Origin: Lytechinus pictus
Lineage: Eukaryota
DNA: 64,000 nucleotides
Direction: 5' to 3'
Assembly (NCBI RefSeq): GCF_037042905.1
Contig: NC_087251.1
Location: 38,938,001 to 39,002,000 of the forward strand
Shown here: positions 3,001 to 42,356 of the stretch, piece by piece
How the letters are laid out: every line of letters begins with the position of its first letter
How positions within the stretch are numbered: the stretch's first letter is position 1
Translations under genes and position numbers: made by a program
Notes under the pieces: model-generated
The model's database searches: none
What the model was told of the DNA's origin: nothing
What the model saw: only the letters and a program-made list of their open reading frames with translations

Positions 3001-6000
3001 CTAAAACATCCCAGGGAGCAAAGACGGCTGATTTGGGGGGGTTTCGGGGGAAATATTGAACAAATATTATTTTGCTCAATTTTGGCCAATTTTGTCAAAT
3101 TTTCCATGTCGCGGGTGGGGCGAGGGGGTCGAAAATTCAAACTCCCTGGATCCTCTTGATTCTCGCTGTAATAATCGGTTAGGATGCTAAAACATCCCAG
3201 GGAGCAAAGACGGCTGATTTGGGGGGGTTTCGGGGGAAATATTGAACAAATATTATTTTGCTCAATTTTGGCCAATTTTGTCAAATTTTCCATGTCGCGG
3301 GTGGGGCGAGGGGGTCGAAAATTCAAACTCCCTGGATCCTCTTGATTCTCGCTGTAATAATCGGTTAGGATGCTAAAACATCCCAGGGAGCAAAGACGGC
3401 TGATTTGGGGGGGTTTCGGGGGAAATATTGAACAAATATTATTTTGCTCAATTTTGCCAAATTTTCCATGTCGCGGTTGGGGCGAGGGGGTCGAAAATTC
3501 AAAGTCCCTGGATCTTCTTGATTCTCGCTGTAATAATCGGTTAGGATGCTAAAACATTCCAGGGAGCGAAGACAGCTGATTTGGGGGGGTTTCGGGGGAA
3601 ATATTGAACAAATATTATTTTGCTCAATTTTGGCCAATTTTGCCGAATTTTCCATGTCGCGGGTGGGGCAATGGGGTCGAAAATTCAAACTCCCTGGATC
3701 CTCTTGATTCTCGCTGTAATAATCGGTTAGGATGCTAAAACATCCTAAGGAGCGAAGACGGCTGATTTTGGGGGGTTTCAGGGGAAATATTGAACAAATA
3801 TTATTTTGCTCAATTTTGGCAAATTTTCCCAATTTTCCATGTCGCGGGTGGGGCGAGGGGGTCGAAAATTAAAACTCCCTGGATCCTCTTGATTCTCGCT
3901 GTAATAATCACTTAGGATGCTAAAACATCCCAGGGAGCGAAGACGGCTGATTTTGGGGGGTTTCGGGGAAAATATTGAACAAATATTATTTTGCTCAATT
4001 TTGCCCAATTTTCCATGTCGCGGTGGGGCGAGGGGGTCGAAAATTCAAACTCCCTGGATCCTCTTGATTCTCGCTGTAATAATCGGTTAGGATGCTAAAA
4101 CATCCCAGGGAGCAAAGACGGCTGATTTGGGGGGGTTTCGGGGGAAATATTGAACAAATATTATTTTGCTCAATTTTGGCCAATTTTGCCCAATTTTCCA
4201 TGTCGCGGGTGGGGCGAGGGGGTCGAAAATTCAAACTCCCTGGATCCTCTTGATTCTTGCTGTAATAATCGGTTAGGATGCTAAAACATCCCAGGGAGCG
4301 AAGACGGCTGATTTAGGGGGGTTTCGGGTGAAATATTGAACAAATATTATTTTGCTCAATTTTGGCCAATTTTGCCCAATTTTCCATGTCGCGGGTGGGG
4401 CGAGGGGGTCGAAAATTCAAACTCCCTGGATCCTCTTGATTCTTGCTGTAATAATCGGTTAGGATGCTAAAACATCCCAGGGAGCGAAGACGGCTGATTT
4501 AGGGGGGTTTCGGGGGAAATATTGAACAAATATTATTTTGGTCAATTTTGGCCAATTTTGCCCAATTTTCCATGTCGCGGTTGGGGCGAGGGGGTCGAAA
4601 ATTCAAACTCCCTGGATCTTCTTGATTCTCGCTGTAATAATCGGTTAGGATGCTAAAACATCCCAGGGAGCAAAGACGGCTGATTTGGGGGGGTTTCGGG
4701 GGAAATATTGAACAAATATTATTTTGCTCAATTTTGGCCAATTTTGTCAAATTTTCCATGTCGCGGGTGGGGCGAGGGGGTCGAAAATTCAAACTCCCTG
4801 GATCCTCTTGATTCTCGCTGTAATAATCGGTTCGGATGCTAAAACATCCCAGGGAGCAAAGACGGCTGATTTGGGGGGGTTTCGGGGGAAATATTGAACA
4901 AATATTATTTTGCTCAATTTTGCCCAATTTTCCATGTCGCGGTTGGGGCGAGGGGGTCGAAAATTCAAAGTCCCTGGATCTTCTTGATTCTCGCTGTAAT
5001 AATCGGTTAGGATGCTAAAACATTCCAGGGAGCGAAGACAGCTGATTTGGGGGGGTTTCGGGGGAAATATTGAACAAATATTATTTTGCTCAATTTTGGC
5101 CAATTTTGCCGAATTTTCCATGTCGCGGGTGGGGCAATGGGGTCGAAAATTCAAACTCCCTGGATCCTCTTGATTCTCGCTGTAATAATCGGTTAGGATG
5201 CTAAAACATCCTAAGGAGTGAAGACGGCTGATTTGGGGGGGTTTCAGGGGAAATATTGAACAAATATTATTTTGCTCAATTTTGGCAAATTTTGCCCAAT
5301 TTTCCATGTCGCGGTTGGGGCGAGGGGGTCGAAAATTCAAACTCCCTGGATCCTCTTGATTCTCACCCCCAAATCAGCCGTCTTTGCTCCCTGGGATGCT
5401 TTAGCATCCTAACCGATTATTACAGTGACCCCCTCGGGGTTTCGGGGGAAATATTGAACAAATATTATTTTGCTCAATTTTGGCCAATTTTGTCAAATTT
5501 TCCATGTCGCGGGTGGGGCGAGGGGGTCGAAAATTCAAACTCCCTGGATCCTCTTGATTCTCGCTGTAATAATCGGTTAGGATGCTAAAACATCCCAGGG
5601 AGCAAAGACGGCTGATTTGGGGGGGTTTTGGGGGAAATATTGAACAAATATTATTTTGCTCAATTTTTACCAATTTTGCCCAATTTTCCATGTCGCGGTT
5701 GGGGCGAGGGGGTCGAAAATTCAAAGTCCCTGGATCTTCTTGATTCTCGCTGTAATAATCGGTTAGGATTCTAAAACATTCCAGGGAGCGAAGACAGCTG
5801 ATTTGGGGGGGTTTCGGGGGAAATATTGAACAAATATTATTTTGCTCAATTTTGGCCAATTTTGCCGAATTTTCCACGTCGCGGGTGGGGCAATGGGGTC
5901 GAAAATTCAAACTCCCTGGATCCTCTTGATTCTCGCTGTAATAATCGGTTAGGATGCTAAAACATCCTAAGGAGCAAAGACGGCTGATTTGGGGGGGTTT

Positions 6001-9000
6001 CAGGGGAAATATTGAACAAATATTATTTTGCTCAATTTTGGCAAATTTTCCCAATTTTCCATGTCGCGGGTGGGGCGAGGGGGTCGAAAATTAAAACTCC
6101 CTGGAACCTCTTGATTCTCGCTGTAATAATCGATTAGGATGCTAAAACATCCCAGGGAGCAAAGACGGCTGATTTGGGGGGATTTCGGGGGAAATATTGA
6201 ACAAATATTATTTTGCTCAATTTTGGCCAATTTTGCCCAATTTTCCATGTCGCGGGTGGGGCGAGGGGGTCGAAAATTCAAACTCCCTGGATCCTCTTGA
6301 TTCTTGCTGTAATAATCGGTTAGGATGCTAAAACATCCCAGGGAGCGAAGACGGCTGATTTAGGGGGGTTTCGGGGGAAATATTGAACAAATATTATTTT
6401 GCTCAATTTTGGCCAATTTTGCCCAATTTTCCATGTCGCGGGTGGGGCGAGGGGGTCGAAAATTCAAACTCCCTGGATCCTCTTGATTCTCGCTGTAATA
6501 ATCGGTTAGGATGCTAAAACATCCCAGGGAGCAAAGACGGCTGATTTGGGGGGGTTTCGGGGGAAATATTGAACAAATATTATTTTGCTCAATTTTGGCC
6601 AATTTTGTCAAATTTTCCATGTCGCGGGTGGGGCGAGGGGGTCGAAAATTCAAACTCCCTGGATCCTCTTGATTCTCGCTGTAATAATCGTCGGTTAGGA
6701 TGCTAAAACATCCCAGGGAGCAAAGACGGCTGATTTGGGGGGGGTTTCGGGGGAAATATTGAACAAATATTATTTTGCTCAATTTTGCCAAATTTTCCAT
6801 GTCGCGGTTGGGGCGAGGGGGTCGAAAATTCAAAGTCCCTGGATCCTCTTGATTCTCGCTGTAATAATCGGTTAGGATGCTAAAACATCCCAGGGAGCAA
6901 AGACGGCTGATTTGGGGGGGTTTCGGGGGAAATATTGAACAAATATTATTTTGCTCAATTTTGCCCAATTTTCCATGTCGCGGTTGGGGCGAGGGGGTCG
7001 AAAATTCAAAGTCCCTGGATCTTCTTGATTCTCGCTGTAATAATCGGTTAGGATGCTTAAACATTCCAGGGAGCGAAGACAGCTGATTTGGGGGGGTTTC
7101 GGGGGAAATATTGAACAAATATTATTTTGCTCAATTTTGGCCAATTTTGCCCAATTTTCCATGTCGCGGGTGGGGCGAGGGGGTCGAAAATTCAAACTCC
7201 CTGGATCCTCTTGATTCTCGCTGTAATAATCGGTTAGGATGCTAAAACATCCCAGGGAGCAAAGACGGCTGATTTGGGGGGGTTTCGGGGGAAATATTGA
7301 ACAAATATTATTTTGCTCAATTTTGCCCAATTTTCCATGTCGCGGTTGGGGCGAGCGGGTCGAAAATTCAAAGTCCCTGGATCTTCTTGATTCTCGCTGT
7401 AATAATCGGTTAGGATGCTAAAACATTCCAGGGAGCGAAGACAGCTGATTTGGGGGGGTTTCGGGGGAAATATTGAACAAATATTATTTTGCTCAATTTT
7501 GGCCAATTTTGCCCAATTTTCCATGTCGCGGGTGGGGCGAGGGGGTCGAAAATTCAAACTCCCTGGATCCTCTTGATTCTCGCTGTAATAATCGATTAGG
7601 ATGCTAAAACATCCCAGGGAGCGAAGACGGCTGATTTGGGGGGGTTTCGGGGGAAATATTGAACAAATATTATTTTGCTCAATTTTGGCCAATTTTGCCC
7701 AATTTTCCATGTCGCGGGTGGGGCGAGGGGGTCATAATTCAAACTCCCTGGATCCTCTTGATTCTTGCTGTAATAATCGGTTAGGATGCTAAAACATCCC
7801 AGGGAGCGAAGACTGCTGATTTAGGGGGGTTTCGGGGGAAATATTGAACAAATATTATTTTGGTCAATTTTTGCCAATTTTGCCCAATTTTTCATGTCGC
7901 GGGTGGGGCGAGGGGGTCGAAAATTCAAACTCCCTGGATCCTCTTGATTCTCGCTGTAATAATCGGTTAGGATGCTAAAACATCCCAGGGAGCAAAGACG
8001 GCTGATTTGGGGGGGTTTCGGGGGAAATATTGAACAAATATTATTTTGCTCAATTTTGGCCAATTTTGCCGAATTTTCCACGTCGCGGGTGGGGCAATGG
8101 GGTCGAAAATTCAAACTCCCTGGATCCTCTTGATTCTCGCTGTAATAATCGGTTAGGATGCTAAAACATCCCAGGGAGCAAAGACGGCTGATTTGGGGGG
8201 GTTTCGGGGGAAATATTGAACAAATATTATTTTGCTCAATTTTGGCCAATTTTGTCAAATTTTCCATGTCGCGGGTGGGGCGAGGGGGTCGAAAATTCAA
8301 ACTCCCTGGATCCTCTTGATTCTCGCTGTAATAATCGGTTAGGATGCTAAAACATCCCAGGGAGCAAAGACGGCTGATTTGGGGGGGTTTCGGGGGAAAT
8401 ATTGAACAAATATTATTTTGCTCAATTTTTACCAATTTTGCCCAATTTTCCATGTCGCGGTTGGGGCGAGGGGGTCGAAAATTCAAAGTCCCTGGATCTT
8501 CTTGATTCTCGCTGTAATAATCGGTTAGGATTCTAAAACATTCCAGGGAGCGAAGACAGCTGATTTGGGGGGGTTTCGGGGGAAATATTGAACAAATATT
8601 ATTTTGCTCAATTTTGGCCAATTTTGCCGAATTTTCCACGTCGCGGGTGGGGCAATGGGGTCGAAAATTCAAACTCCCTGGATCCTCTTGATTCTCGCTG
8701 TAATAATCGGTTAGGATGCTAAAACATCCTAAGGAGCAAAGACGGCTGATTTGGGGGGGTTTCAGGGGAAATATTGAACAAATATTATTTTGCTCAATTT
8801 TGGCAAATTTTCCCAATTTTCCATGTCGCGGGTGGGGCGAGGGGGTCGAAAATTAAAACTCCCTGGAACCTCTTGATTCTCGCTGTAATAATCGATTAGG
8901 ATGCTAAAACATCCCAGGGAGCAAAGACGGCTGATTTGGGGGGATTTCGGGGGAAATATTGAACAAATATTATTTTGCTCAATTTTGGCCAATTTTGCCC

Positions 9001-12000
9001 AATTTTCCATGTCGCGGGTGGGGCGAGGGGGTCGAAAATTCAAACTCCCTGGATCCTCTTGATTCTTGCTGTAATAATCGGTTAGGATGCTAAAACATCC
9101 CAGGGAGCGAAGACGGCTGATTTAGGGGGGTTTCGGGGGAAATATTGAACAAATATTATTTTGCTCAATTTTGGCCAATTTTGCCCAATTTTCCATGTCG
9201 CGGGTGGGGCGAGGGGGTCGAAAATTCAAACTCCCTGGATCCTCTTGATTCTCGCTGTAATAATCGGTTAGGATGCTAAAACATCCCAGGGAGCAAAGAC
9301 GGCTGATTTGGGGGGGTTTCGGGGGAAATATTGAACAAATATTATTTTGCTCAATTTTGGCCAATTTTGTCAAATTTTCCATGTCGCGGGTGGGGCGAGG
9401 GGGTCGAAAATTCAAACTCCCTGGATCCTCTTGATTCTCGCTGTAATAATCGGTTAGGATGCTAAAACATCCCAGGGAGCAAAGACGGCTGATTTGGGGG
9501 GGTTTCGGGGGAAATATTGAACAAATATTATTTTGCTCAATTTTGGCCAATTTTGTCAAATTTTCCATGTCGCGGGTGGGGCGAGGGGGTCGAAAATTCA
9601 AACTCCCTGGATCCTCTTGATTCTCGCTGTAATAATCGGTTAGGATGCTAAAACATCCCAGGGAGCAAAGACGGCTGATTTGGGGGGGTTTCGGGGGAAA
9701 TATTGAACAAATATTATTTTGCTCAATTTTGCCAAATTTTCCATGTCGCGGTTGGGGCGAGGGGGTCGAAAATTCAAAGTCCCTGGATCTTCTTGATTCT
9801 CGCTGTAATAATCGGTTAGGATGCTAAAACATTCCAGGGAGCGAAGACAGCTGATTTGGGGGGGTTTCGGGGGAAATATTGAACAAATATTATTTTGCTC
9901 AATTTTGGCCAATTTTGCCGAATTTTCCATGTCGCGGGTGGGGCAATGGGGTCGAAAATTCAAACTCCCTGGATCCTCTTGATTCTCGCTGTAATAATCG
10001 GTTAGGATGCTAAAACATCCTAAGGAGCGAAGACGGCTGATTTTGGGGGGGTTTCAGGGGAAATATTGAACAAATATTATTTTGCTCAATTTTGGCAAAT
10101 TTTCCCAATTTTCCATGTCGCGGGTGGGGCGAGGGGGTCGAAAATTAAAACTCCCTGGATCCTCTTGATTCTCGCTGTAATAATCGATTAGGATGCTAAA
10201 ACATCCCAGGGAGCGAAGACGGCTGATTTGGGGGGGTTTCGGGGGAAATATTGAACAAATATTATTTTGCTCAATTTTGGCCAATTTTGCCCAATTTTCC
10301 ATGTCGCGGGTGGGGCGAGGGGGTCATAATTCAAACTCCCTGGATCCTCTTGATTCTTGCTGTAATAATCGGTTAGGATGCTAAAACATCCCAGGGAGCG
10401 AAGACTGCTGATTTAGGGGGGTTTCGGGGGAAATATTGAACAAATATTATTTTGGTCAATTTTTGCCAATTTTGCCCAATTTTTCATGTCGCGGGTGGGG
10501 CGAGGGGGTCGAAAATTCAAACTCCCTGGATCCTCTTGATTCTCGCTGTAATAATCGGTTAGGATGCTAAAACATCCCAGGGAGCAAAGACGGCTGATTT
10601 GGGGGGGTTTCGGGGGAAATATTGAACAAATATTATTTTGCTCAATTTTGGCCAATTTTGTCAAATTTTCCATGTCGCGGGTGGGGCGAGGGGGTCGAAA
10701 ATTCAAACTCCCTGGATCCTCTTGATTCTCGCTGTAATAATCGGTTAGGATGCTAAAACATCCCAGGGAGCAAAGACGGCTGATTTGGGGGGGTTTCGGG
10801 GGAAATATTGAACAAATATTATTTTGCTCAATTTTTACCAATTTTGCCCAATTTTCCATGTCGCGGTTGGGGCGAGGGGGTCGAAAATTCAAAGTCCCTG
10901 GATCTTCTTGATTCTCGCTGTAATAATCGGTTAGGATTCTAAAACATTCCAGGGAGCGAAGACAGCTGATTTGGGGGGGTTTCTGGGGAAATATTGAACA
11001 AATATTATTTTGCTCAATTTTGGCCAATTTTGCCGAATTTTCCACGTCGCGGGTGGGGCAATGGGGTCGAAAATTCAAACTCCCTGGATCCTCTTGATTC
11101 TCGCTGTAATAATCGGTTAGGATGCTAAAACATCCTAAGGAGCAAAGACGGCTGATTTGGGGGGGTTTCAGGGGAAATATTGAACAAATATTATTTTGCT
11201 CAATTTTGGCAAATTTTCCCAATTTTCCATGTCGCGGGTGGGGCGAGGGGGTCGAAAATTAAAACTCCCTGGAACCTCTTGATTCTCGCTGTAATAATCG
11301 ATTAGGATGCTAAAACATCCCAGGGAGCAAAGACGGCTGATTTGGGGGGATTTCGGGGGAAATATTGAACAAATATTATTTTGCTCAATTTTGGCCAATT
11401 TTGCCCAATTTTCCATGTCGCGGGTGGGGCGAGGGGGTCGAAAATTCAAACTCCCTGGATCCTCTTGATTCTTGCTGTAATAATCGGTTAGGATGCTAAA
11501 ACATCCCAGGGAGCGAAGACGGCTGATTTAGGGGGGTTTCGGGGGAAATATTGAACAAATATTATTTTGCTCAATTTTGGCCAATTTTGCCCAATTTTCC
11601 ATGTCGCGGGTGGGGCGAGGGGGTCGAAAATTCAAACTCCCTGGATCCTCTTGATTCTCGCTGTAATAATCGGTTAGGATGCTAAAACATCCCAGGGAGC
11701 AAAGACGGCTGATTTGGGGGGGTTTCGGGGGAAATATTGAACAAATATTATTTTGCTCAATTTTGGCCAATTTTGTCAAATTTTCCATGTCGCGGGTGGG
11801 GCGAGGGGGTCGAAAATTCAAACTCCCTGGATCCTCTTGATTCTCGCTGTAATAATCGGTTAGGATGCTAAAACATCCCAGGGAGCAAAGACGGCTGATT
11901 TGGGGGGGTTTCGGGGGAAATATTGAACAAATATTATTTTGCTCAATTTTGGCCAATTTTGTCAAATTTTCCATGTCGCGGGTGGGGCGAGGGGGTCGAA

Positions 12001-15000
12001 AATTCAAACTCCCTGGATCCTCTTGATTCTCGCTGTAATAATCGGTTAGGATGCTAAAACATCCCAGGGAGCAAAGACGGCTGATTTGGGGGGGTTTCGG
12101 GGGAAATATTGAACAAATATTATTTTGCTCAATTTTGCCAAATTTTCCATGTCGCGGTTGGGGCGAGGGGGTCGAAAATTCAAAGTCCCTGGATCTTCTT
12201 GATTCTCGCTGTAATAATCGGTTAGGATGCTAAAACATTCCAGGGAGCGAAGACAGCTGATTTGGGGGGGTTTCGGGGGAAATATTGAACAAATATTATT
12301 TTGCTCAATTTTGGCCAATTTTGCCGAATTTTCCATGTCGCGGGTGGGGCAATGGGGTCGAAAATTCAAACTCCCTGGATCCTCTTGATTCTCGCTGTAA
12401 TAATCGGTTAGGATGCTAAAACATCCTAAGGAGCGAAGACGGCTGATTTTGGGGGGTTTCAGGGGAAATATTGAACAAATATTATTTTGCTCAATTTTGG
12501 CAAATTTTCCCAATTTTCCATGTCGCGGGTGGGGCGAGGGGGTCGAAAATTAAAACTCCCTGGATCCTCTTGATTCTCGCTGTAATAATCACTTAGGATG
12601 CTAAAACATCCCAGGGAGCGAAGACGGCTGATTTTGGGGGGTTTCGGGGAAAATATTGAACAAATATTATTTTGCTCAATTTTGCCCAATTTTCCATGTC
12701 GCGGTGGGGCGAGGGGGTCGAAAATTCAAACTCCCTGGATCCTCTTGATTCTCGCTGTAATAATCGGTTAGGATGCTAAAACATCCCAGGGAGCAAAGAC
12801 GGCTGATTTGGGGGGGTTTCGGGGGAAATATTGAACAAATATTATTTTGCTCAATTTTGGCCAATTTTGCCCAATTTTCCATGTCGCGGGTGGGGCGAGG
12901 GGGTCGAAAATTCAAACTCCCTGGATCCTCTTGATTCTTGCTGTAATAATCGGTTAGGATGCTAAAACATCCCAGGGAGCGAAGACGGCTGATTTAGGGG
13001 GGTTTCGGGTGAAATATTGAACAAATATTATTTTGCTCAATTTTGGCCAATTTTGCCCAATTTTCCATGTCGCGGGTGGGGCGAGGGGGTCGAAAATTCA
13101 AACTCCCTGGATCCTCTTGATTCTTGCTGTAATAATCGGTTAGGATGCTAAAACATCCCAGGGAGCGAAGACGGCTGATTTAGGGGGGTTTCGGGGGAAA
13201 TATTGAACAAATATTATTTTGGTCAATTTTGGCCAATTTTGCCCAATTTTCCATGTCGCGGTTGGGGCGAGGGGGTCGAAAATTCAAACTCCCTGGATCT
13301 TCTTGATTCTCGCTGTAATAATCGGTTAGGATGCTAAAACATCCCAGGGAGCAAAGACGGCTGATTTGGGGGGGTTTCGGGGGAAATATTGAACAAATAT
13401 TATTTTGCTCAATTTTGGCCAATTTTGTCAAATTTTCCATGTCGCGGGTGGGGCGAGGGGGTCGAAAATTCAAACTCCCTGGATCCTCTTGATTCTCGCT
13501 GTAATAATCGGTTCGGATGCTAAAACATCCCAGGGAGCAAAGACGGCTGATTTGGGGGGGTTTCGGGGGAAATATTGAACAAATATTATTTTGCTCAATT
13601 TTGCCCAATTTTCCATGTCGCGGTTGGGGCGAGGGGGTCGAAAATTCAAAGTCCCTGGATCTTCTTGATTCTCGCTGTAATAATCGGTTAGGATGCTAAA
13701 ACATTCCAGGGAGCGAAGACAGCTGATTTGGGGGGGTTTCGGGGGAAATATTGAACAAATATTATTTTGCTCAATTTTGGCCAATTTTGCCGAATTTTCC
13801 ATGTCGCGGGTGGGGCAATGGGGTCGAAAATTCAAACTCCCTGGATCCTCTTGATTCTCGCTGTAATAATCGGTTAGGATGCTAAAACATCCTAAGGAGT
13901 GAAGACGGCTGATTTGGGGGGGTTTCAGGGGAAATATTGAACAAATATTATTTTGCTCAATTTTGGCAAATTTTGCCCAATTTTCCATGTCGCGGTTGGG
14001 GCGAGGGGGTCGAAAATTCAAACTCCCTGGATCCTCTTGATTCTCACCCCCAAATCAGCCGTCTTTGCTCCCTGGGATGCTTTAGCATCCTAACCGATTA
14101 TTACAGTGACCCCCTCGGGGTTTCGGGGGAAATATTGAACAAATATTATTTTGCTCAATTTTGGCCAATTTTGTCAAATTTTCCATGTCGCGGGTGGGGC
14201 GAGGGGGTCGAAAATTCAAACTCCCTGGATCCTCTTGATTCTCGCTGTAATAATCGGTTAGGATGCTAAAACATCCCAGGGAGCAAAGACGGCTGATTTG
14301 GGGGGGTTTTGGGGGAAATATTGAACAAATATTATTTTGCTCAATTTTTACCAATTTTGCCCAATTTTCCATGTCGCGGTTGGGGCGAGGGGGTCGAAAA
14401 TTCAAAGTCCCTGGATCTTCTTGATTCTCGCTGTAATAATCGGTTAGGATTCTAAAACATTCCAGGGAGCGAAGACAGCTGATTTGGGGGGGTTTCGGGG
14501 GAAATATTGAACAAATATTATTTTGCTCAATTTTGGCCAATTTTGCCGAATTTTCCACGTCGCGGGTGGGGCAATGGGGTCGAAAATTCAAACTCCCTGG
14601 ATCCTCTTGATTCTCGCTGTAATAATCGGTTAGGATGCTAAAACATCCTAAGGAGCAAAGACGGCTGATTTGGGGGGGTTTCAGGGGAAATATTGAACAA
14701 ATATTATTTTGCTCAATTTTGGCAAATTTTCCCAATTTTCCATGTCGCGGGTGGGGCGAGGGGGTCGAAAATTAAAACTCCCTGGAACCTCTTGATTCTC
14801 GCTGTAATAATCGATTAGGATGCTAAAACATCCCAGGGAGCAAAGACGGCTGATTTGGGGGGATTTCGGGGGAAATATTGAACAAATATTATTTTGCTCA
14901 ATTTTGGCCAATTTTGCCCAATTTTCCATGTCGCGGGTGGGGCGAGGGGGTCGAAAATTCAAACTCCCTGGATCCTCTTGATTCTTGCTGTAATAATCGG

Positions 15001-16450
15001 TTAGGATGCTAAAACATCCCAGGGAGCGAAGACGGCTGATTTAGGGGGGTTTCGGGGGAAATATTGAACAAATATTATTTTGCTCAATTTTGGCCAATTT
15101 TGCCCAATTTTCCATGTCGCGGGTGGGGCGAGGGGGTCGAAAATTCAAACTCCCTGGATCCTCTTGATTCTCGCTGTAATAATCGGTTAGGATGCTAAAA
15201 CATCCCAGGGAGCAAAGACGGCTGATTTGGGGGGGTTTCGGGGGAAATATTGAACAAATATTATTTTGCTCAATTTTGGCCAATTTTGTCAAATTTTCCA
15301 TGTCGCGGGTGGGGCGAGGGGGTCGAAAATTCAAACTCCCTGGATCCTCTTGATTCTCGCTGTAATAATCGTCGGTTAGGATGCTAAAACATCCCAGGGA
15401 GCAAAGACGGCTGATTTGGGGGGGGTTTCGGGGGAAATATTGAACAAATATTATTTTGCTCAATTTTGCCAAATTTTCCATGTCGCGGTTGGGGCGAGGG
15501 GGTCGAAAATTCAAAGTCCCTGGATCCTCTTGATTCTCGCTGTAATAATCGGTTAGGATGCTAAAACATCCCAGGGAGCAAAGACGGCTGATTTGGGGGG
15601 GTTTCGGGGGAAATATTGAACAAATATTATTTTGCTCAATTTTGCCCAATTTTCCATGTCGCGGTTGGGGCGAGGGGGTCGAAAATTCAAAGTCCCTGGA
15701 TCTTCTTGATTCTCGCTGTAATAATCGGTTAGGATGCTTAAACATTCCAGGGAGCGAAGACAGCTGATTTGGGGGGGTTTCGGGGGAAATATTGAACAAA
15801 TATTATTTTGCTCAATTTTGGCCAATTTTGCCCAATTTTCCATGTCGCGGGTGGGGCAATGGGGTCGAAAATTCAAACTCCCTGGATCCTCTTGATTCTC
15901 GCTGCAATAATCGGTTAGGATGCTAAAACATCCCAGGGAGCGAAGACGGCTGATTTGGGGGGGTTTCGGGGGAAATATTGAACAAATATTATTTTGCTCA
16001 ATTTTGCCCAATTTTGCCCAATTTTCCATGTCGCGGGTCGGGCGAGGGGTCGAAAATTCAAACTCCCTTGATCCTCTTGATTCTCGCTGTAATAATCGGT
16101 TAGGATGCTAAAACATCCCAGGGAAGCGAAGACGGCTGATTCGGGGGGGGGGGGTTTCGGGGGAAATATTGAACAAATATTATTTTGCTCAATTTTGGCC
16201 AATTTTGTCCAATTTTCCATGTCGCGGGTGGGGCGAGGGGGTCAAAAATTCAAACTCCCTGGATCCTCTTGATTCTCGCTGTAATAATCGGTTAGGATGC
16301 TAAAACATCCCAGGGAGCGAAGACGGCTGATTTTGGGGGGGGTTTCGGGGGCAATATTAAACAAAAATTATTTTGCTCAATTTTCGCCAATTTTGGCCAA
16401 TTTTCCATGTTGCGGGTGGGGCGAGGGGGTCGAAAATTCAAACTCCCTGC
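1..16450. repeat. Satellite DNA array, 186-bp monomer (about 89 copies in window; 177- and 185-bp variants), continues off the left edge
   Basis: Monomer ATCCTCTTGATTCTCGCTGTAATAATCGGTTAGGATGCTAAAACATCCCAGGGAGCAAAGACGGCTGATTTGGGGGGGTTTCGGGGGAAATATTGAACAAATATT...AAATTCAAACTCCCTGG recurs head-to-tail. The ORF track repeats a 62-aa unit. Most monomers carry a BamHI site (GGATCC). Confidence 0.99.
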
Positions 16451-16827
16451 GCCAAGGGTTAATAATATAAGACGTAAGTAAATAAACTAGACAACTTTGA
16501 GGTTAAGTGTGACTGTCTTTAATGACCATGGCCAAGAGACCAACACTAGATGGCGCGCTTACAATTTGCGGTTGCAACATCGAATCATCATAATACTAAT
16601 ACAACATACTGGTGTAACTGCCTTTTACTTTTCTCTACTCTTTTACAATATAATCTGAATAACAAAATCATGATGATTTGTAACTAGCTCACTATTAAAT
16701 AAAAGGGTTAGACCTCCGTTGGTGTAAGACTCTAATAAATATAGACACCAATGTATCATAACGAGTTGAATATTAAACTAATATATTAATACAACAAAGG
16801 TCACAATACAAATAACATCAAATGGCA

Positions 16828-17054
16828 CTGGATCTTCTTGATTCTCGCTGTAATAATCGGTTAAAACATCCCAGGGAGCAAAGACTGCTGATTTGGAGGG
16901 GGTGGGGGTTTCGGGGGCTATATTAAACAAAAATTATTGGCTCAATTTTGGCCAATTTGGCCAATTTTCCATGTCGCGGGTGGGGTGAGGGGGTCGAAAA
17001 TTCAAACTCCCAGGATCTTCTTGATTCTCGCTGTAATAATCGGTTAGGATGCTA
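16828..17054 (+). repeat. Detached, diverged satellite monomer (about 1.2 units)
   Basis: CTGGATCTTCTTGATTCTCGCTGTAATAATCGGTT...GGATGCTA matches the array monomer with indels; separated from the array by about 370 bp of unrelated DNA. Confidence 0.95.
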
Positions 17055-17571
17055 CATGTATCATTATTTGAAGTATTCATATATTGCGTTTGTAAATCAT
17101 TTTTCTAACATATTTTTCTAAGTTAAAAAATTTGAAGCCTAAATGAAACACTTGTACTCTCCTTGTAATATTGCACCCTAAGTGATAAAAGGTGAAATTG
17201 TCCTTATTATTGTTTGCACCCAGAAATGTTCGTTTGCACAATAAAAGGGGCAACATTTTACCTTTTAAGGTGTATAATACTTAAACATTAAAAATGTTCA
17301 AAAACAAATTAACTTTCATTACATGGTTCAAATCTGCACCCTATATGGTGCTTAATGTAGCTTATGTTACACCCATGAAGGTGCACAAATGAGCATTGCT
17401 CTCTCTAGCACCCCTTACTGTACCAACCCCTAAGGCTCAAATTTGAACCCTGATTCTTAGTGTGTTCATCAAACCATTTCAAGGTTGAATGACTAGACCT
17501 CATTCACAATGCACTCATGGATAGAATTCATTTTTACACAGTTCTTATAATAGCCAGTGAAACTGTACCAA

Positions 17572-18035
17572 GGTCTCACGCACGTAAAACATTCCCCATA
17601 GACTTGTGTGTTAAAATGGCACTTAACAAAAATTCATAAAAAATAAATGTGAAATTAGAGGGTCGAATGTTTACTACCTTTGGATAGGATATATATCTGA
17701 CATTCCATATCTGACCAGAGAAGGGTATCGTAGCCAGCTCATTTTAAAAATAAATCGCCATTTATGAAGATAACTATGATGGGATCAAATTCATCAACTG
17801 AAACAGTAAAATAGCCCCAATTCTTCCGCCAGTCAAAAAATAGTGCCAAATCATTGATATATCTTCCCAATTTGGGCAAAGGAAGTTCAGTAGTTACCAT
17901 TTCTAGAATCAGTGTTAGATTTTGAATCATATTCATACATTTTTGTCAATCAGCAATACCAAATTGAACAATTTCGAATGGGTTGGGTCGTACGAATATC
18001 TTTAGCCCTCCTGATGTAATTAGGCTCGTGGGACC
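17572..18035 (+). mobile_element. 464-bp non-autonomous TIR element (MITE), copy 1
   Basis: Imperfect TIR GGTCTCACGCACGTAA ... TTAGGCTCGTGGGACC; near-identical second copy 1456 bp downstream; flanks CCAA / TATA. Confidence 0.85.
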
Positions 18036-19027
18036 TATATTATATGACCTATGAATTTAATTTTTTTTAATAGCTTCTTTGCTATTCTTTTATATCTGTA
18101 CACTTACACTAGCACAAAGAAATGCGTTGAAAATGCTTATTTTCTATGCAATGACCCATTTTAATGTGCTACTCATACATGTTATATTCACTACATGGAT
18201 GTATACATATCCTTCCTGCATATAGCCCAACAGTGAATGCAATGACAATATAGGTCCCTATCAATTGTAATATAAAGGTGTATGTAAATTTGGTGTAGAT
18301 ATCAGGATACCAGAACTGCCCAAAACACAATTACCAGATATACATGAGATTGAATGAGGAAACAATAAAAGAATGAGAACATATTATATTACTTTAGTAC
18401 ATTTGCATTTGAACTATTATATCAAAAATCTTCCTAGGGCTATTGCCTATTAGATGTAAGAAGAAAGAGATACACAAATAGATAGAAAGAGGAGAGAGAA
18501 AGAAATATAATTTTATAGATGTCATGGCTTATAAAGAAGGGGGGGGCTAGCCTAAGATTGGATCACACAGCCACCCCCCCCCCCCTCCCTCCTTAGTTGA
18601 GCACTATTAGATACCTTACCTTACTCTGTGCCTTTTTCTAAATACCTTCTTGAAGGTACCACTCTAGTTCTCTTCAGTAAAGTTCAGAAAGTTCTATCTC
18701 TAGCTCTCTACCCCATTCCAAAAAACAATTTTAACATGAGCAATTTGTATAGGTCTAACATTAAGTAGGTGATCATACACTAGCACAAACCAATGATGAA
18801 TCAGAACATAAAGAGGCCTAGACTCTCATTGACCAGTCTATATGCATTCCTAGGCTTACATACACATACCTACTAACTTTACCTGATATAGCCTTGCTAA
18901 GCCATTAAATCCATTTTTTGCACCACTTGATGACTAAACATATTGATATCAGTTAGAAATTGTTTGCTTCTGAGGAGTTTTGGCAGGTATTTTATCCACT
19001 ATAGGGAATTCGCCTGTATTACTTATA

Positions 19028-19491
19028 GGTCTCACGCGCGTAAAACATTCCCCATAGACTTGTGTGTTAAAATGGCACTTAACAAAAATTCATAAAAAAT
19101 AAATGTGAAATTAGAGGGTCGAATGTTTACTACCTTTGGATAGGATATATATCTGACATTCCATATCTGACCAGAGAAGGGTATCATAGCCAGCTCATTT
19201 TAAAAATAAATCGCCATTTATGAAGATAACTATGATGGGATCAAATTCATCAACTGAAACAGTAAAATAGCCCCAATTCTTCCGGCAGTCAAAAAATAGT
19301 GCCAAATCATTGATATATCTTCCCAATTTGGGCAAAGGAAGTTCAGTAGTTACCATTTCTAGAATCAGTGTTAGATTTTGAATCATATTCATACATTTTT
19401 GTCAATCAGCAATATCAAATTGAAAAATTTCGAATGGGTTGGGTCGAACGAATATCTTTAGCCCTCCTGATGTAATTAGGCTCGTGGGACC
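19028..19491 (+). mobile_element. 464-bp non-autonomous TIR element (MITE), copy 2
   Basis: Direct repeat of 17572-18035 with about 6 substitutions seen by eye; flanks TATA / CCAA. Confidence 0.85.
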
Positions 19492-19901
19492 CCAAAAGTC
19501 CAACACCCCTGTCAAATATATTTGACAAAATCTGTAATGATAACAATATTTTTTAAAGAAGGGACTTCAGTTGTTGTTGTTGATACAAAATGTACATATG
19601 AATTCATTCTCATCTTTTTTTTTTTTTTTTTTTTTTTTATCTAAATATGTTTACTGTTGATATTCACATTTTCATTTATCTTCTGTACATCTGTTATTCT
19701 AATGTGGTTTATTGTATCTAAATTATACGTTAATGTTATATGTTATGGACCCCACGGAAGACCAGCGCTACTGTGCCAGTCACGCTGAATGTGGGCTATC
19801 CACCGTATTTTATTGTATATAATTGTGCTTTTTAATACGGAAATAAATACTACTACTACTACTGTTACTATGGAAAAATTTGGTATTCACTTTTCTAACA
19901 G

Positions 19902-20046
19902 GTGAACCACACAAACGGTGAGAAGAGGTAGAAAGAAAGAGGGGGACAGCAACTGGAAGGAGATGGAAGTCCAGACACTCTGCCACTGTGTGCCATTGAA
20001 CAAGAAATCTCTCTTTGGATAAGGGGGTCAAGCTTCTAGTATGAAG
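19902..20046 (+). other. Possible non-coding exon (lncRNA or UTR)
   Basis: Acceptor TTCACTTTTCTAACAG and consensus donor AAG|GTGAGT bound a 145-nt, less AT-rich segment with stops in all three frames. Confidence 0.35.
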
Positions 20047-20120
20047 GTGAGTTTGTATATAAAGTTGTATTTATTGAACATTCTACTTGTAAATACAAGT
20101 ATACTGTAGGGTAATATTTA

Positions 20121-20880
20121 TTTTTGTCTCACCTGCATAGCAGAGTGAGACTATAGGCGCCGCTTTTCCGACGGCGGCGGCGGCGTCAACACCAAATCTT
20201 ACCTGAGTTTAAGTTTTTGAAATGACAGCATAACTTAGAAAGTATATGGACCTAGTTCATGAAACTTGGCCATAATGTTAATCGAGTATTATTAAACATC
20301 CTGCCTGAGTTTCATGTCACATGACCAAGGTCAAAGGTCATTTAGGGTCAATGAACTTTGGCTGAATTGGGGGTATCTGTTGAATTACCATCATAACTTT
20401 AAAAGTTTATGGATCTGATTCATGAAACTTGGACATAATAGTAATCAAGTATTATTGAACATCCTGTGCAAGTTTCAGGTCACATGATCAAGGTCAAAGG
20501 TCATTTAGGGTCAATGAACTTTGGTCAAATTGGGGTATTTGTTGAATTACTGCCATAACTTTGAAAGTGTGTTGGTCTAGTTCATAAAACTTGGACACAA
20601 GACTAATAAAGTATCACTGAACATCCTGTGCGAGTTTCAGGTCACATGATCAAGATCAAAGGTCATGTAAGGTCAATGAACTTTGGCCACGTTGGGGGTA
20701 TTTGTTGAATTACCATCATATCTCTATAAGTGTATGGGTTTAGTTCATAAAACGTGGAAATAAGAGTAACCAAGTATCACTAAACATCTTGTGCGAGTTA
20801 TAGTAATTTTCAAAATCAGCACTGCTGCTATATTGAATCGCGTGATGCAGGTGAGACGGCCAGAGGCATTCCACTTGTTT
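20121..20880 (+). mobile_element. Helentron-associated (HINE/DINE-1/pearl-like) non-autonomous element, family A copy 1
   Basis: Subterminal inverted repeats GTCTCACCTGCAT ... ATGCAGGTGAGAC, (GGC)n microsatellite, internal tandem units containing GGTCAAAGGTCA, T-rich insertion site. Confidence 0.8.
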
Positions 20881-21578
20881 TATTTATTTTACTCTTAAGA
20901 GCGGTTGTAAATGTGATGTACTGTTATATCTATTTAATTCATCCACATCTTGTAATAAATTCATCTTAAATTTACTCACAAAAATGGATAATATCAATCT
21001 CATGAATTTTTATAGAATGTCAAGTTTGAATTGACATCTGAGCCCTCTTAATATTTCAATCAATGACAATATAATTATGGAATGCATTCTCAAAAATATG
21101 TAAGAGCAAGAACAATGTAACTCGTCAAAATGAAAACAAAATCTAGGTAGACTATTGGATCCATACTATTGTAACAATTATTTTCCACTTAACTTTTGCA
21201 AGAGATTCAGATTCAGTTGATTTTATTTCTTATTAGAATATCAACAAAGAGACTAACAATGTGAGCTTACAAGCATAAACACAATATAAGTGCATTTAAG
21301 AATAAAATAGTAGTAGTAGAGATAGGTGGTAAGTTGGTAACATAAACATGACCTTGACCTCAATTTTGTGTTCATGTATTTTCCCCCCATTTCTTGTTCT
21401 TCCCCTCTTCTAAAGTTCTCTTATTTCCCCCACTACTAGAGGTGAGTCGCCTACCCTGCACCCTTGCCCTCCTTACACCACACATGAACATTTTCTCCAA
21501 TGATATGATTGAAATGAAATATATTTTCTGACTTCAATATACGGGTATCAAAAATAATATTCGGAGACTATTAACCCA

Positions 21579-22366
21579 TTTTTTGTCTCACCTGCATTGC
21601 AGAGTGAGACTATAGGCGCCGCTTTTCCGACGGCGGCGGCGGCAACACCAAATCTTAACCTGAGGTTAAGTTTTTGAAATGACAGCATAACTTAGAAAGT
21701 ATATAGACCTAGTTCATGAAACTTGGCCATAAGGTTAATCAAGTATTACTGAACATCCTGTGCAAGTTTCAGGTCACAGGATCAAGGTCAAAGGTCATTT
21801 AGGGTCAATGAACTTAGACCATGTTGGGGGAATCAACATCAAAATCTTAACCTAAGGTTAAGTTTTTGAAATGTCATCATAACTTAGAAAATATATAGAC
21901 CTAGTTCATGAAACTTATACATAAGGTTAATCAAGTATCACTGAACATACTGCATGAGTTTCACGTCACATGACCAAGGTCAAAGGTCATTTAGGGTCAA
22001 TGAACTTTGGCCGAATTGGGGGTATCTGTTGAATTACCATCATAACTTTGAAAGTTTATGGATCTGATTCATGAAACTTGGACATAATAGTAATCAAGTA
22101 TTACTGAACATCCTGTGCAAGTTTCAGGTCACATGATCAAGGTCAAAGGTCATGTAAGGTCAAAGAACTTTGGCCACGTTTGGGGTATTTGTTGAATTGC
22201 CATCATATCTCTATAAGTGTATGGGTTTAGTTCATAAAACGTGGAAATAAGAGTAACCAAGTATCACTGAACATCTTGTGCGAGTTATAGTAGTTTTTAA
22301 AATCAGCACTGCTGCTATATTGAATCGCGTGATGCAGGTGAGACAGCCAGAGGCATTCCACTTGTT
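21579..22366 (+). mobile_element. HINE-like element, family A copy 2
   Basis: Same termini and internal units as 20121-20880, with a different internal unit arrangement. Confidence 0.8.
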
Positions 22367-24194
22367 TTAATTTCACATTCTATCTTTTTTTTAATTTAAG
22401 CCCGTGATTGCAACATCATAAGGCTCTTCCATAAATCATACATACTGTACATGAATGTGAACACTCTGCTATTATCAAGTTGAGCTGCTAACGTGGTTTG
22501 CACTGATTCTTCTTATTTCAGATTGTTCAAGAGTCAAGACTTTTGAAGACGTGACGCCATGGACCTGGTTGCACCTGGCAAGGGAACTATATGACCATGA
22601 TGACTGTTCACTGACTTAAGTATTCTCTAAACGCTTTGTAAAATTAACAAAAGTACTCATTTTCATTTTTCAAAGATAATAATCATTATATTGATATTGT
22701 GGATACCTTTTTATGATTTTTATCATAAAATTATTATAATGATAATGATGATAAGTCATAATACAAAGGAACAATAAGTAGAAAAGAAGGCGACAAAGAA
22801 GGAAGAGGAGAAGAAGATTATGAAGAAATAGAAGAGGAGGGGTGGAAGAGGAGAAAAGGAGAATAAGAATAAATTACATCACTGTGAGTTCCTCTTCATG
22901 AAATCTTACAGAAATCTTTCTCATTTAAATGGAAATATTTATTAAGCATACAAATGCGATATAGTTATTCATGTTTTTTTTTAATGTATTATGTGTCATG
23001 TTTGTAGTTGTACACTTGATTTAGGTATTGTATTCATTTAGGATATGAATAATATATTTCATTTGAATCGACACTGTAAAAAAAAATAGTTGAAATGACT
23101 GTATAAAATTGTGGCAAAAAATTACTTAAATTTTTTCCAGTATTTATGAGTTTGGCAGTTTTAAGTAAAATTTACTTTTTTTTCTTTGCATCCATTTTTA
23201 CTCAAGAAAATTAAGTTACAATGTAAAACAATCACTAAAATATTTGAAAAAATCAAATGGGGGAGTGGACTTTCGTGATTAAAAAGTCCGCTCCCCCCAT
23301 CGTCCCACTTTTAGTGGCATCATTTTCATCTTAGACATCTTTTATCCAAATATTAGACTTTGTGCATTGTCACTTACCTGTACATGTATAGGTACTGACA
23401 GATATTTATACGCGATCGTTTCATTCTTACAAATAAAACAATGAGAATAATATAAGCATTTTCCGAAAACCTAAAAAGAAATCTGAAATTTTCTGCTAAA
23501 TTTAATGTTGCTCAATCTTTAATTCAACAAAAGAATAAAATGCACACCCTTATCCAAAACAATTTCAAACACAAATAGATAGGCCTATGACAGTAAAAAA
23601 AAATGACTTGCTCTAATGAATATTCATGCATTATTTCAATAAGGCGTTAATTGAAAATATAAGTACATTCAACATGATTTTATAAGTAATAATCATCTTT
23701 GCCTAATTAAGTTAAATTCAATCAATTGAAGCAAGCTAGCAGTACGTGAATTTTCTTAAATGTATATTGAACCCAAATAAATCAAGTAAATTAAAAGACA
23801 AGTTGAAACTACTTTAAAAAAGCAAAAAATAATTATGAATTATAATTTTTTCTTATATTTTATACATTAAGTGTTAACAACTGATTAAGAAATATTTTTG
23901 TATGTGTATGTACCTCTTTTAATCATGTTTATACAGTCATGATTAAAGGACATGGGACAGGTGAAAAGATTATATTGTTTTACAAATTTTGGTGTGTATT
24001 TATTTTAAAAGTAATAAATTTACACAAAATGTCATTCTTTTTGCTTCATCTCTTTGTTTTGTTGCTTTCAATGAATCGGGAGGAAGAGGGGTGGGGTTAA
24101 AATATGATTTGCCCCTCAGAACACACGTTTCCCTACTAGAAATAGTAATTAATATTTGTAGAAAATTGTAGGATTATTTTTTTATAAACTCTGA

Positions 24195-28904: not shown

Positions 28905-31900
28905 GGCCCCCGGTCGAACATGAATTTGCATGGCACCCCCTTAGTTTAAGGTCAATTTGGCGCCTTCAGTTGAACATGAATTAGGAGCCCCCATGCGAAA
29001 ATGACTTTGCCCTCCCCCCTCTTAAAAACATTAATTTGTCGCCTCTGGTCAAACATCAAATTGGCGCTCCCCTAGTTTGAACATCAATTCGGCGCCCCCT
29101 AGTTCAAACATCAATTCGGCGCCTGGCCGCCCCCCCCCCCCTAGTTCGAATATCAATTCGGCGCCCCCTCCTAATTTAAACATCAATTTTTCGCCCCTAG
29201 TTTGACTCAATTTGGCAGCCCCCTTGTTCGAAGAACATCGATTCGGCGCCCCCTATAGTTCGAACATAAATTTTGCGCCCCCCTAGTTCAAACATCAATA
29301 TGGCGCCCCCTATAGTTCAAATATTAATTCGGCACCCCTACTTCGAACATCAATTCGGCGCCCCCCTAGTTTGAACATCAATGTGGCGCCCCCTAATTCA
29401 AACATAGATTCGGCGCCCCTAATTTGAACATCAATTTGGCGCCCCCTAGTTCGAACATCAATTCGGCGCCCCCCTCCCTAATTCAAACATCATTTTGGAG
29501 TCCCTTTAGTTTGAACATCAATTTAAGGCCCCCCCCCCCTAGTTCGAACATCATTTCCGCAACCCCCTTGTTCAAACATCAATTTGGCGCCCCTATATAG
29601 TTTGAACATCAACTCGGCCCCCCATAGTTTGAACTTTGATTCATGCCCCCTCCTAGTTCAAACATCAATTTGGCGCCCCTAGTTTGAACATCAATTTGGC
29701 ACTCCCTTGTTAGAACATCAATTCGGCGCCCCCACCCCCTATAGTCCGAACATCAATTTGGCGCTTTCTAGATCTAACATAAATTCGCCCCCCCCCCCCC
29801 AGTTTGAACATCAATTTGGCACCCCATAGTTCGCGATTCGGCGCCCCCTAATTCGAACATCACTTCGCCCCCCTTGTTCGAACATCAATTTGGCACCTCT
29901 AGTTTGAACATCAGTTTGGCGGCCCCTATACAGTGCGTCTCAAAAAACTATACACTTTTGAAATGGCTACCAAACAAAAAATATGAAACTATGGGGGAAA
30001 ATACCTATATATATGGAAAGCCAATAAAGTCAATTTTCAGATGACACCAAAAAGTTGGAAAACTATTTATGCTTGAGTGAGCACTACCCACTTAAACAAA
30101 GGGTATGGAAATTAGGCTGGGCAGGAATTTGCCTTTCAATTTCTTTCAGTTTTTTTAGATGCGAGTCCCAGTGGAACTCGCAAAGTTGAGGGTGTTCTGA
30201 TAAATCAATGATCAAGAATTTATCAATTTAGGTTTTTAGAGCAAATTTCAAGAATAATTAAATTAAAATTAATGCATGAGAGAACATGAAATACAATTTT
30301 TAACTTTTTCACTTGGATCTCAGCAATGTGATCATGGAAGGGATAGGACTTAGGTGGGGAAGTAGGTTGATGGGATAAGGGTCAACAGATCACTTAACCC
30401 CCCCCCCTCCCTCTCTCCCTACCCCTTTCACCCCTCCTGAGAGACTAGCCTTTGCTAGGGGAGCATGAATTAGCCTTCCAGGTTTTTTTTAGAGGTGAGT
30501 CCTTTGGAACTTGCAAAGTTAAGGGTAAGGTGTTATGCTAAATTACTGATGAAATTGAGATCAGTTTTGGTTTCTGACGCAAATTTCATGAGTAACAAAA
30601 TTGAAATGTAATACATGAGTAAACAGGAATTGTAATTTTAGTGTAGCATTTTTAGTTTATTATGTGGATCTTAGCAAGTGTGCTTGTGAGAGTCAGAGTG
30701 ATGTGATTGTACCTCTTACATTCAAGGGGGTGAGATAGGGTAAGACTGGGTTAAAGGGGCATTCTTCTTGTGTTCTCTTACAAATTACATGTCATGTACT
30801 CACCACAACCTCCACCCCTTTCTTTCCCCTGGATGGTATTAAAAACTTAAATGCCTCGTGACTTATCATGCTTATGGTTGATGGGTCTTTCTTTTCCATT
30901 GAATGATTATTAAGAACTTGACTAATTATGGTGATTTATGAAATAATTTATTGAAAAATCTGAATGTTTGATTGATAATTTATTGAAAAAGGTGAATATT
31001 TGATTGATCTCATTGATTGAGTTGATTTACTAACAAATTGTTGATTGAATGATTGATAAGTGAAAGTTGATGACCTAATTTTCAGAATTTATTATCAAAT
31101 TGACAGTCCACTCTGGACTTAATGCGTGCATATAATAGCAATCAGTCTCAATCTCAACAGGAGGGGGGGGGGGGACGGACCTAAAGGAGGGAGACTATAA
31201 ACGTTCTGTTGACCACTTTCCCATCAGCTTACTTCACCCACTGAAGTCATATCTTACCCCTATTCTCCTGACTCCAATGAACACACTGCTGAGATCCACA
31301 TCGTAAAGTTAAAATGCTGCACTAAACATTGCAATTCACGCTTACTCATGCATGAAATTTCAATTTGATAATTCATGAAATTTGCTCTAACAATTTAAAT
31401 CGATCATGAATGACAATTAATTTGATTTAAATTAATTTAAGTTTGCAAGTTCCGAGGGACTCGCCTCTCAAAAACTGACAGAAATCAAAAGGCTAATTCC
31501 TGCCCACCCTAATTTTCATACCCTTTGTTTCAGTGGGTAGAGCTCACTCAAGCATGAATAGTTTTCCAACTTTTTGGTGTCATCTGAAAGTTGACTTCAT
31601 TGGCTTTCCATATATATATGTATATCCCCCCTAAGTGACATATTTTTTGTTTGGTAGCCCTTTCAAAAGTGTATAGTTGTTTTTGAGACGCACTGTAGTT
31701 CGAACATCAATTCAGCGCCCCCCACCTCTAGTTCGAACATTAATTCGGCGCCCCCCTATAGTTTGAACATTCATGTGGCACCCGCCCTATTAACTTCAAA
31801 CATTAATTCGGCGCCCCAATTCGAACATCAATTCGGCACCCCCCTTAGTTCGATCACATCAATTCGCCCCCCCCCCCTTGTTCGAACATCAATTTGGCAC

Positions 31901-32092
31901 CCCTAGTTTGAACACCAATTCGGCACCCCCCTAGTTTGAACGTCATTTCTGCGCACCCCCTCCCCCCCAGTTCAACCATCAATTTGGCGCCCCTATATAG
32001 TTTGAACATTAATTCAGCGCCCCCTAGTTCGAACATCAATTGGCTCCTCCTCATCATTCGAACATCAAAACGGCACCCCGGTCAACATCAAA
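28905..32092. repeat. About 30-bp minisatellite (TAGTTCGAACATCAATTCGGCGCCCCC), split by a transposon at 29931-31695
   Basis: Tandem units on both sides of the insertion; variable poly-C length. Confidence 0.95.
29931..31695. mobile_element. Non-autonomous Tc1/mariner-like foldback element with long TIRs
   Basis: TA|CAGTGCGTCTCAAAAAACTATACACTTTTGAAA ... TTTCAAAAGTGTATAGTTGTTTTTGAGACGCACTG|TA; TA TSD; inverted similarity extends over hundreds of bp; no transposase ORF. Confidence 0.92.
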
Positions 32093-37939: not shown

Positions 37940-38577
37940 TTTTTTTTAGTTCTCTATTAGAAGGTCTTTGTTGCTCTGCATCCGGCCGCTTGTGCAACAA
38001 AACCCCAGCCCTCAGCGCATTTCAGCGTGGTCATGATGGAGCAAAAAAAAAATTACTTGATTTTCCCGCCTTCAAATTTCGATGCATCGATGTTCGATCG
38101 AATTAAAGCTGTTTACAAAATAATCTATATAACTTAAGCCTAATGCAAATTATATTATTTAACATAATTGGCTCTCAGCATTTACAACGTGTACAGGTGT
38201 ACATGACCGAAAAACATGCTGTGTACACATGCATCAAAAATGGACTTTCAAAAATGGGCCTATACAGTGCATCCCCAAAAAAACTATACACTTTTGAAAT
38301 GGCTGCCAAATTAAAAAATATACCACTTTGGTGAAAAACACTTACATATATGGAAGCCAATTGATAAAGTCAACTTTCAGATGTCACCAAAAAGTTGGAA
38401 AACTATTAATGCTTGAGCGAGCACTGCCCACTGAAACAAATGGTATGAAAATTAGGCTGGGCTGGAATTAGCCTTCCAATTTATGTCAGTTTTTGAGAGG
38501 TAAATCGTTTGGAACTTGCAAAGTTAAGGGCGTTTTGATAAATTAATGATCAACCTTGACCAGTTTTGGTTGTTTAA

Positions 38578-42321: not shown

Positions 42322-42356
42322 TATATATGTTTTTTTTTGGGGGGGGACGCACTCTA

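Follow-up and report, generated by a model that had tools for sequence, protein, structure and literature searches.

Two 464-bp direct repeats of Lytechinus pictus most probably belong to one non-autonomous KolobokP transposon of a published family

As judged from sequence comparison, the segment 17572-19491 of the window (the whole stretch of Lytechinus pictus DNA that was analysed, 64,000 nucleotides) is almost certainly a DNA transposon of the KolobokP group (Kolobok superfamily), of the type published as KolobokP-N1_LyPi and KolobokP-N2_LyPi. We propose that one non-autonomous copy of KolobokP very probably explains the whole layout of the locus. The element is an ordinary copy of a published family and, as such, already known. 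The accessible parts of the source publication (Kojima & Bao 2022, PMC9587614), to which the statements below on this paper and its records are limited, describe KolobokP elements as Kolobok DNA transposons with the structure LTDR-INT-LTDR, in which long terminal direct repeats (LTDRs) of about 450 or 660 bp, each equipped with short terminal inverted repeats (TIRs) of its own and with RR..YY ends, flank an interior (INT). The same text gives TTAA as the classical Kolobok target. Four KolobokP families are listed for Lytechinus pictus (PMC9587614). According to Table S1 of that paper, N2_LyPi is 1,904 bp long (313 LTDR and 156 INT copies; target-site duplication, TSD, of 4; TIR of 16) and N1_LyPi is 3,486 bp long (400 LTDR and 3 INT copies; TSD of 4; TIR of 12). 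KolobokP-1_LyPi is autonomous (4,984 bp) and codes for a DDD/E transposase as well as for a nuclease of the His-Me finger type.

The layout CCAA-[464 bp]-TATA...TATA-[464 bp]-CCAA, which an initial annotation of the letters had reported with about six substitutions between the repeats, proved to be exact. The two co-oriented repeats, compared within the window, differ by 6 substitutions and 0 indels (98.7% identity), located at repeat positions 11, 159, 258, 388, 398 and 420. The features are as follows:

17568..17571, no strand: CCAA, read as the left TSD copy (sequence match; Table S1 of PMC9587614 lists a TSD of 4 for the family)
17572..19491, + strand (as in the published consensus): most likely a non-autonomous KolobokP monomer, LTDR-INT-LTDR, 1,920 bp (comparison with published N1/N2_LyPi)
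17572..18035, + strand: left LTDR, 464 bp, GG..CC ends, imperfect TIR 12/16 (10 differences from KolobokP-N1_LyPi-LTDR, by eye)
18036..19027, + strand: INT, 992 bp, non-coding, collinear with the N1/N2_LyPi INT unit (by-eye comparison; repetitive in public runs)
18036..18039, no strand: TATA, first 4 letters of the INT, inherited (N1_LyPi-I and N2_LyPi-I begin identically in the visible records)
19024..19027, no strand: TATA, final 4 letters of the INT, inherited (same last 24 letters in the visible N1_LyPi-I record; N2_LyPi-I ends with TACA)
19028..19491, + strand: right LTDR, 464 bp, imperfect TIR 13/16 (8 differences from KolobokP-N1_LyPi-LTDR, by eye)
19492..19495, no strand: CCAA, read as the right TSD copy (sequence match)

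Both TATAs belong to the 992-bp interval, whose two ends they form, and the 464-bp repeats are not two separate MITE copies, as had been supposed, both being LTDRs of the same 1,920-bp unit. In both repeats, the TIR letters 1 to 9 match at 8 positions. Given the local word composition, the probability that 4-mers match by chance is 0.0069 for one pair and 4.7e-5 for both pairs; hence the layout is not accidental and requires an explanation, and the reservation that short AT-rich 4-mers could have matched by chance can be lifted. Based on the four-letter match and on the TSD length known for the family, we regard CCAA as the sole true 4-bp TSD of the locus. The window contains no further copy of the LTDR or of the INT (the best stray matches cover 18-20 bp), and no convincing repeat that would join the two flanks as halves of one interrupted element (best match, 22 bp; E 0.039).

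The assignment to the family comes from the comparison with the KolobokP LyPi consensus records in Data S1 and with Table S1 of PMC9587614, all identities being counted line by line by eye, not by program, on the visible part of these records. Right and left LTDRs match KolobokP-N1_LyPi-LTDR, which is of equal length, at 456/464 and 454/464 letters, respectively. The INT opens with 23 and closes with 24 letters that are identical in N1_LyPi-I; over the first 210 and the last ~155 letters, the likeness is about 94%. The LTDRs follow N1 except at positions 369, 457 and 461, where their letters are N2-like; relative to the N1 record, both have 6 differences in common, and 3 of these (positions 56, 274 and 401) are also absent from N2. 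Likewise, the INT is a mosaic, being N2-like near 210-240 and N1-like in its 3' half. The copy fits neither N1 nor N2 cleanly in these records, and such an N1/N2 mosaic may represent at most a minor subfamily. Compared with N2_LyPi, the monomer measures 1,920 bp instead of 1,904 bp; compared with N1_LyPi, which has a doubled INT and a nested insertion, the copy has a single INT. Features in common with these families are the LTDR, ~98% alike to that of N1, the collinear INT with N1-identical ends and the 4-bp TSD. The visible KolobokP-N1_LyPi-I record consists of two INT units abutting at a single TATA, the first one carrying a nested insertion of ~600 bp, and therefore stands for the form LTDR-INT-INT-LTDR; the N1-like monomer at 17572-19491, with its one INT, is probably closer to the usual unit than is the N1 record itself.

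Several properties agree with the published definition of the group. First, the unit has the LTDR-INT-LTDR build with direct terminal repeats, and these repeats are 464 bp long, as in N1_LyPi and close to the defined ~450 bp (the other defined length being ~660 bp). Second, each LTDR possesses its own short imperfect TIR (12/16 and 13/16) and RR..YY termini, here GG..CC. Third, a short outer TSD without strict TTAA specificity, CCAA, occurs on both sides. Fourth, the LTDR and the INT are both homologous to the described family, of which interspersed copies with the INT joined to the LTDR are found in public runs and counted in the published copy numbers. The termini thus find a place in KolobokP of the Kolobok superfamily, by virtue of the RR..YY ends, the 4-bp TSD and the LTDR of ~450 bp, though the initial annotation had been unable to assign them to a named superfamily. 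As for the coding features of autonomous KolobokP elements, the longest stop-to-stop frames are of 55 amino acids in the INT and 68 amino acids in the whole 1,920-bp unit, and the copy is therefore classed as non-autonomous only.

Public sequencing runs provided a second view of the element. Contigs at 85% likeness were collected from four runs (X1, X4, X8 and X19) of the 24 listed, runs with a small share of the sampled words being left out of the evidence; these runs may come from other individuals or species (the best of the 24 contains 0.26 of the sampled words), and their summed contig depth does not equal copy number. From the bin preceding the element to the first bin of the element, the depth rises from 730 to 248,976 (X1), 1,303 to 148,985 (X4), 2.2 to 137.5 (X8) and 102 to 2,225 (X19); past the right LTDR it drops to 1,307, 1,285, 0.75 and 34, respectively. 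Among the nine bins that lie wholly within the INT, 9/9 (X1), 9/9 (X4), 8/9 (X8) and 4/9 (X19) exceed all flank bins of their run in depth, so that the INT is repetitive in three runs and weakly so in X19. Among the 32 contig pieces listed (of which there are 9,928 more), three reach across the LTDR-INT junction, with 31 letters or more to either side of it, and since they show 11, 12 and 26 differences from the window, they derive from other copies with the same junction. At repeat position 274, both LTDRs of the window have a G, and nearly all the depth of the four runs has a T; a shared G is expected if both LTDRs travel as one unit, and it could alternatively be a subfamily trait. Neither an empty site (flank-CCAA-flank) nor an INT-INT joint was found among the 15 joints listed from the public contigs (112 more exist). 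The flanks 17060-17569 and 19508-20110 have raised and uneven contig depth (hundreds to thousands in X1 and X4), and the CCAA target may lie inside an older repeat, further copies of which might furnish the empty-site sequence.

The proposed course of events is as follows. An autonomous relative, for instance KolobokP-1_LyPi, would provide the KolobokP DDD/E transposase in trans, as the LTDR homology suggests. The transposase would pair the two outermost TIRs and insert the whole unit at a CCAA site, where a cut with a 4-nt stagger would generate the outer TSD; the inner TIRs and the inner TATAs would be passengers of the moving unit. We consider it probable, to a high degree, that the 1,920-bp element arrived as a whole unit. 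The 6 differences from N1 that both LTDRs share, including the 3 also absent from N2, fit a descent within one unit, so far as these letters can tell. In DNA transposition, unlike LTR retrotransposition, one end is not recopied from the other. Because of this, the six left-right differences date the last homogenisation of the LTDRs and not necessarily the insertion. As regards the visible KolobokP-1_LyPi record, by-eye comparison gives a likeness of ~92% for the LTDR and an ungapped match at 49/70 positions for the opening 70 letters of the two INTs. This match indicates that the INT is element-derived, and a similar stretch occurs near the INT end; the records differ in that KolobokP-1_LyPi is autonomous and has an INT of the form TTTA..TAGA with unmatched inner 4-mers, whereas the present copy encodes nothing.

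The inner TATAs are the feature that had led to the proposal of a second TSD made at this locus. They are instead inherited INT ends, as the following lines of evidence show. First, in the visible records, the INT ends are TATA/TATA in N1_LyPi, TATA/TACA in N2_LyPi and TTTA/TAGA in KolobokP-1_LyPi, and the INT of the clam element KolobokP-1_MeMe is described as both beginning and ending with TATA (PMC9587614). Second, the available text of that paper states that abutting INTs keep a single TATA, and explains it by LTDR excision from a multimer. The join CCTGTATTACT-TATA-TTATATGACC, which the initial annotation had put forward as a sign of a circle, lies with one letter different in the visible N1_LyPi INT record; being within a published INT and explained by LTDR loss from a multimer, such a join would be no evidence for a captured circle. 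Third, we surveyed by hand 58 consecutive records of Data S1 with both INT ends visible (with related families counted separately and a few records being incomplete). In 20/58 records, an identical word of 4 or 5 letters stands at both ends of the INT; of these records, 12/20 have palindromic words (TATA, TTAA or TGCA) and 8/20 match directly only; 8/58 match only in inverted orientation, and 30/58 in neither direction. Of the 20 direct matches, 8 read only as 5-mers; counted by non-palindromic words, there are seven 5-mers and one 4-mer. For the seven 5-mer families, the listed TSD is 4 in five and 4/5 in one (6_MoPh is without a row in Table S1); a relation between the length of the inner match and the TSD length of the family, which was considered in comparing Table S1 with this hand count, is unsupported. 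Within these records, a match between the INT ends is inherited and common without being universal; with palindromes excluded, inverted matches are as frequent as direct ones. Most simply, the inner 4-mers would derive from an old palindromic TTAA-like motif that was inherited along the lineage and drifted. Several KolobokP INTs of the visible records (among them 5_CGi, 5_MyCo, 2_MyEd and 2_TeGr) have short inverted repeats, at most 7 letters long, at their ends, a symmetry that the accessible main text of PMC9587614 does not discuss.

A mechanistic origin of these words can also be envisaged, and we hold it to be unlikely. According to it, the 4-5-mers at the INT ends are the footprint of monomers being rebuilt via an IS26-like circular LTDR-INT (or INT-only) intermediate; LTDRs may then be exchanged between INT lineages, and symmetric INT ends may be a site of re-entry or of nuclease action. 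One hint in this direction is the 20/58 records whose INT begins and ends alike, but 12/20 of these have palindromic words, 8/58 records match only when inverted and 30/58 in neither way. Another, from by-eye counts on the visible records, is that the likeness to KolobokP-1_LyPi is ~92% in the LTDR but only ~70% at the INT start, together with the N1/N2 mosaic. If true, the footprint reading would make KolobokP a eukaryotic counterpart of translocatable-unit transposition. The circular pathway is already raised in the accessible text of PMC9587614, and the locus at 17572-19491 does not prove it. The IS26-like circular intermediate and the homing nuclease cut site are a question for the KolobokP family as a whole, for which a short, high-copy, non-coding unit would offer a convenient substrate in tests of the circular intermediate.

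Concerning how this particular copy was assembled, the alternative that survives best, though we judge it improbable, is that a solo LTDR inserted first with its CCAA TSD, and that an LTDR-INT circle of the element then integrated into it by single crossover or targeted transposition, thereby rebuilding the monomer. This route takes up the earlier circle idea, the circle now being the element's own and like the IS26 translocatable unit, and corresponds to model b1 (Fig. 5b1) of PMC9587614, the available part of which already proposes such an LTDR-INT circle. It leads to the same end product; solo LTDRs, reported as common, more numerous than INTs in N1/N2_LyPi and possibly moving alone (Tables 2, 3 and S1 of PMC9587614, visible parts), would provide the target, and the 6 sites that differ between the LTDRs and the mosaic nature of the copy are in keeping with it. 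However, the 6 differences from N1 common to both LTDRs fit descent of one unit better than a meeting of random family members, and a 2026 review (PMC13565253, accessible part) describes the nuclease-driven unequal-crossover model of PMC9587614 as still in need of experimental confirmation, the circle route being likewise a proposal.

Very improbable is the reading with which the analysis began, namely a cointegrate or the capture of a circle, in which an unrelated 988-bp circle was taken up via a MITE, with TATA as the target that was duplicated. The geometry alone fits it, and the double 4-mer match (4.7e-5) is not due to chance. Nevertheless, the interval is no captured circular DNA: it is the INT of a published family with 156 near-full copies for N2_LyPi, public runs show it to be repetitive and, in other copies, joined to the LTDR, and its TATA ends stand in the consensus, which for N2 cannot have been built from this locus alone, given the 156 INT copies. 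IS6/Tn3-type cointegrates and captured circles were accordingly rejected as candidates, the interval being the family INT and the inner words standing in the consensus. The companion idea of a composite transposon that moved as one unit and has CCAA as its TSD is supported for the movement but not for the cargo, the interval being the family's own INT. More generally, where a marine invertebrate has two direct copies of ~450 or 660 bp with matching outer and matching inner 4-mers, these point to the normal KolobokP build, not to circle capture.

Two further readings are exceedingly improbable. Two independent, MITE-like insertions of solo LTDRs with chance 4-mer matches are suggested by the excess of solo LTDRs over INTs in the visible N1/N2_LyPi data and by their possible movement on their own, but each copy is missing its own TSD, the interval is an INT with the exact family junctions, and the chance of the double match is 4.7e-5. 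A miniature (TRIM-like) LTR retrotransposon with 464-bp LTRs and a 4-bp TSD, to which the direct terminal repeats, the outer 4-bp TSD and the non-coding interior would be suited, is rejected since the ends are GG..CC and not TG..CA, a primer site starting with TGG is absent after the first repeat on both strands, the 15 letters preceding the second repeat form no polypurine tract (5/15 purines on the plus strand, 9/15 on the minus strand), and the repeat is ~92% alike (by eye) to the LTDR of KolobokP-1_LyPi, which encodes a Kolobok transposase.

The single KolobokP unit that we favour resembles the bacterial composite transposons and the pseudo-compound transposons of IS26 (IS6 family) in that direct, TIR-bearing repeats flank an interior and that there is one outer TSD, a likeness drawn by PMC9587614 itself in its accessible text. 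It differs from them in that the repeats have no transposase gene and that the interior is the lineage's own DNA, not cargo; moreover, the enzyme would be a eukaryotic Kolobok transposase, and the resemblance would thus be one of working only. The locus adds one more copy to a described family and, as a locus, matters little.

The surroundings of the element are rich in repeats. Positions 1-17054 of the window are occupied by an array of a 186-bp satellite. Its higher-order period is 8,681 bp, and at this spacing a stretch of 5,445 bp matches exactly, as might result from the very recent duplication of a block, from a higher-order repeat or from the assembly; a short piece of the satellite occurs in inverted orientation at 5366-5447 and again at 14047-14128. 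Downstream, a repeat of ~770-960 bp with internal tandem units of 163 and 192 bp is present in three copies (20117-20885, 21580-22372 and 42847-43811), which may be non-autonomous elements of the Helitron/Helentron type that sea urchins possess. At 29049-32079, 38364-38527 and 40200-42460 there are arrays of 26-30-bp units together with several pairs of long inverted repeats (such as 29942-30154 paired with 31470-31682, 91%), probably fold-back or MITE-like elements. Pfam comparison of six frames located elsewhere in the window detected no transposase family, four frames being without match and two, on the + strand (48157-48441 and 49993-50706), having ankyrin-repeat matches; these two frames are probably exons of one host gene.
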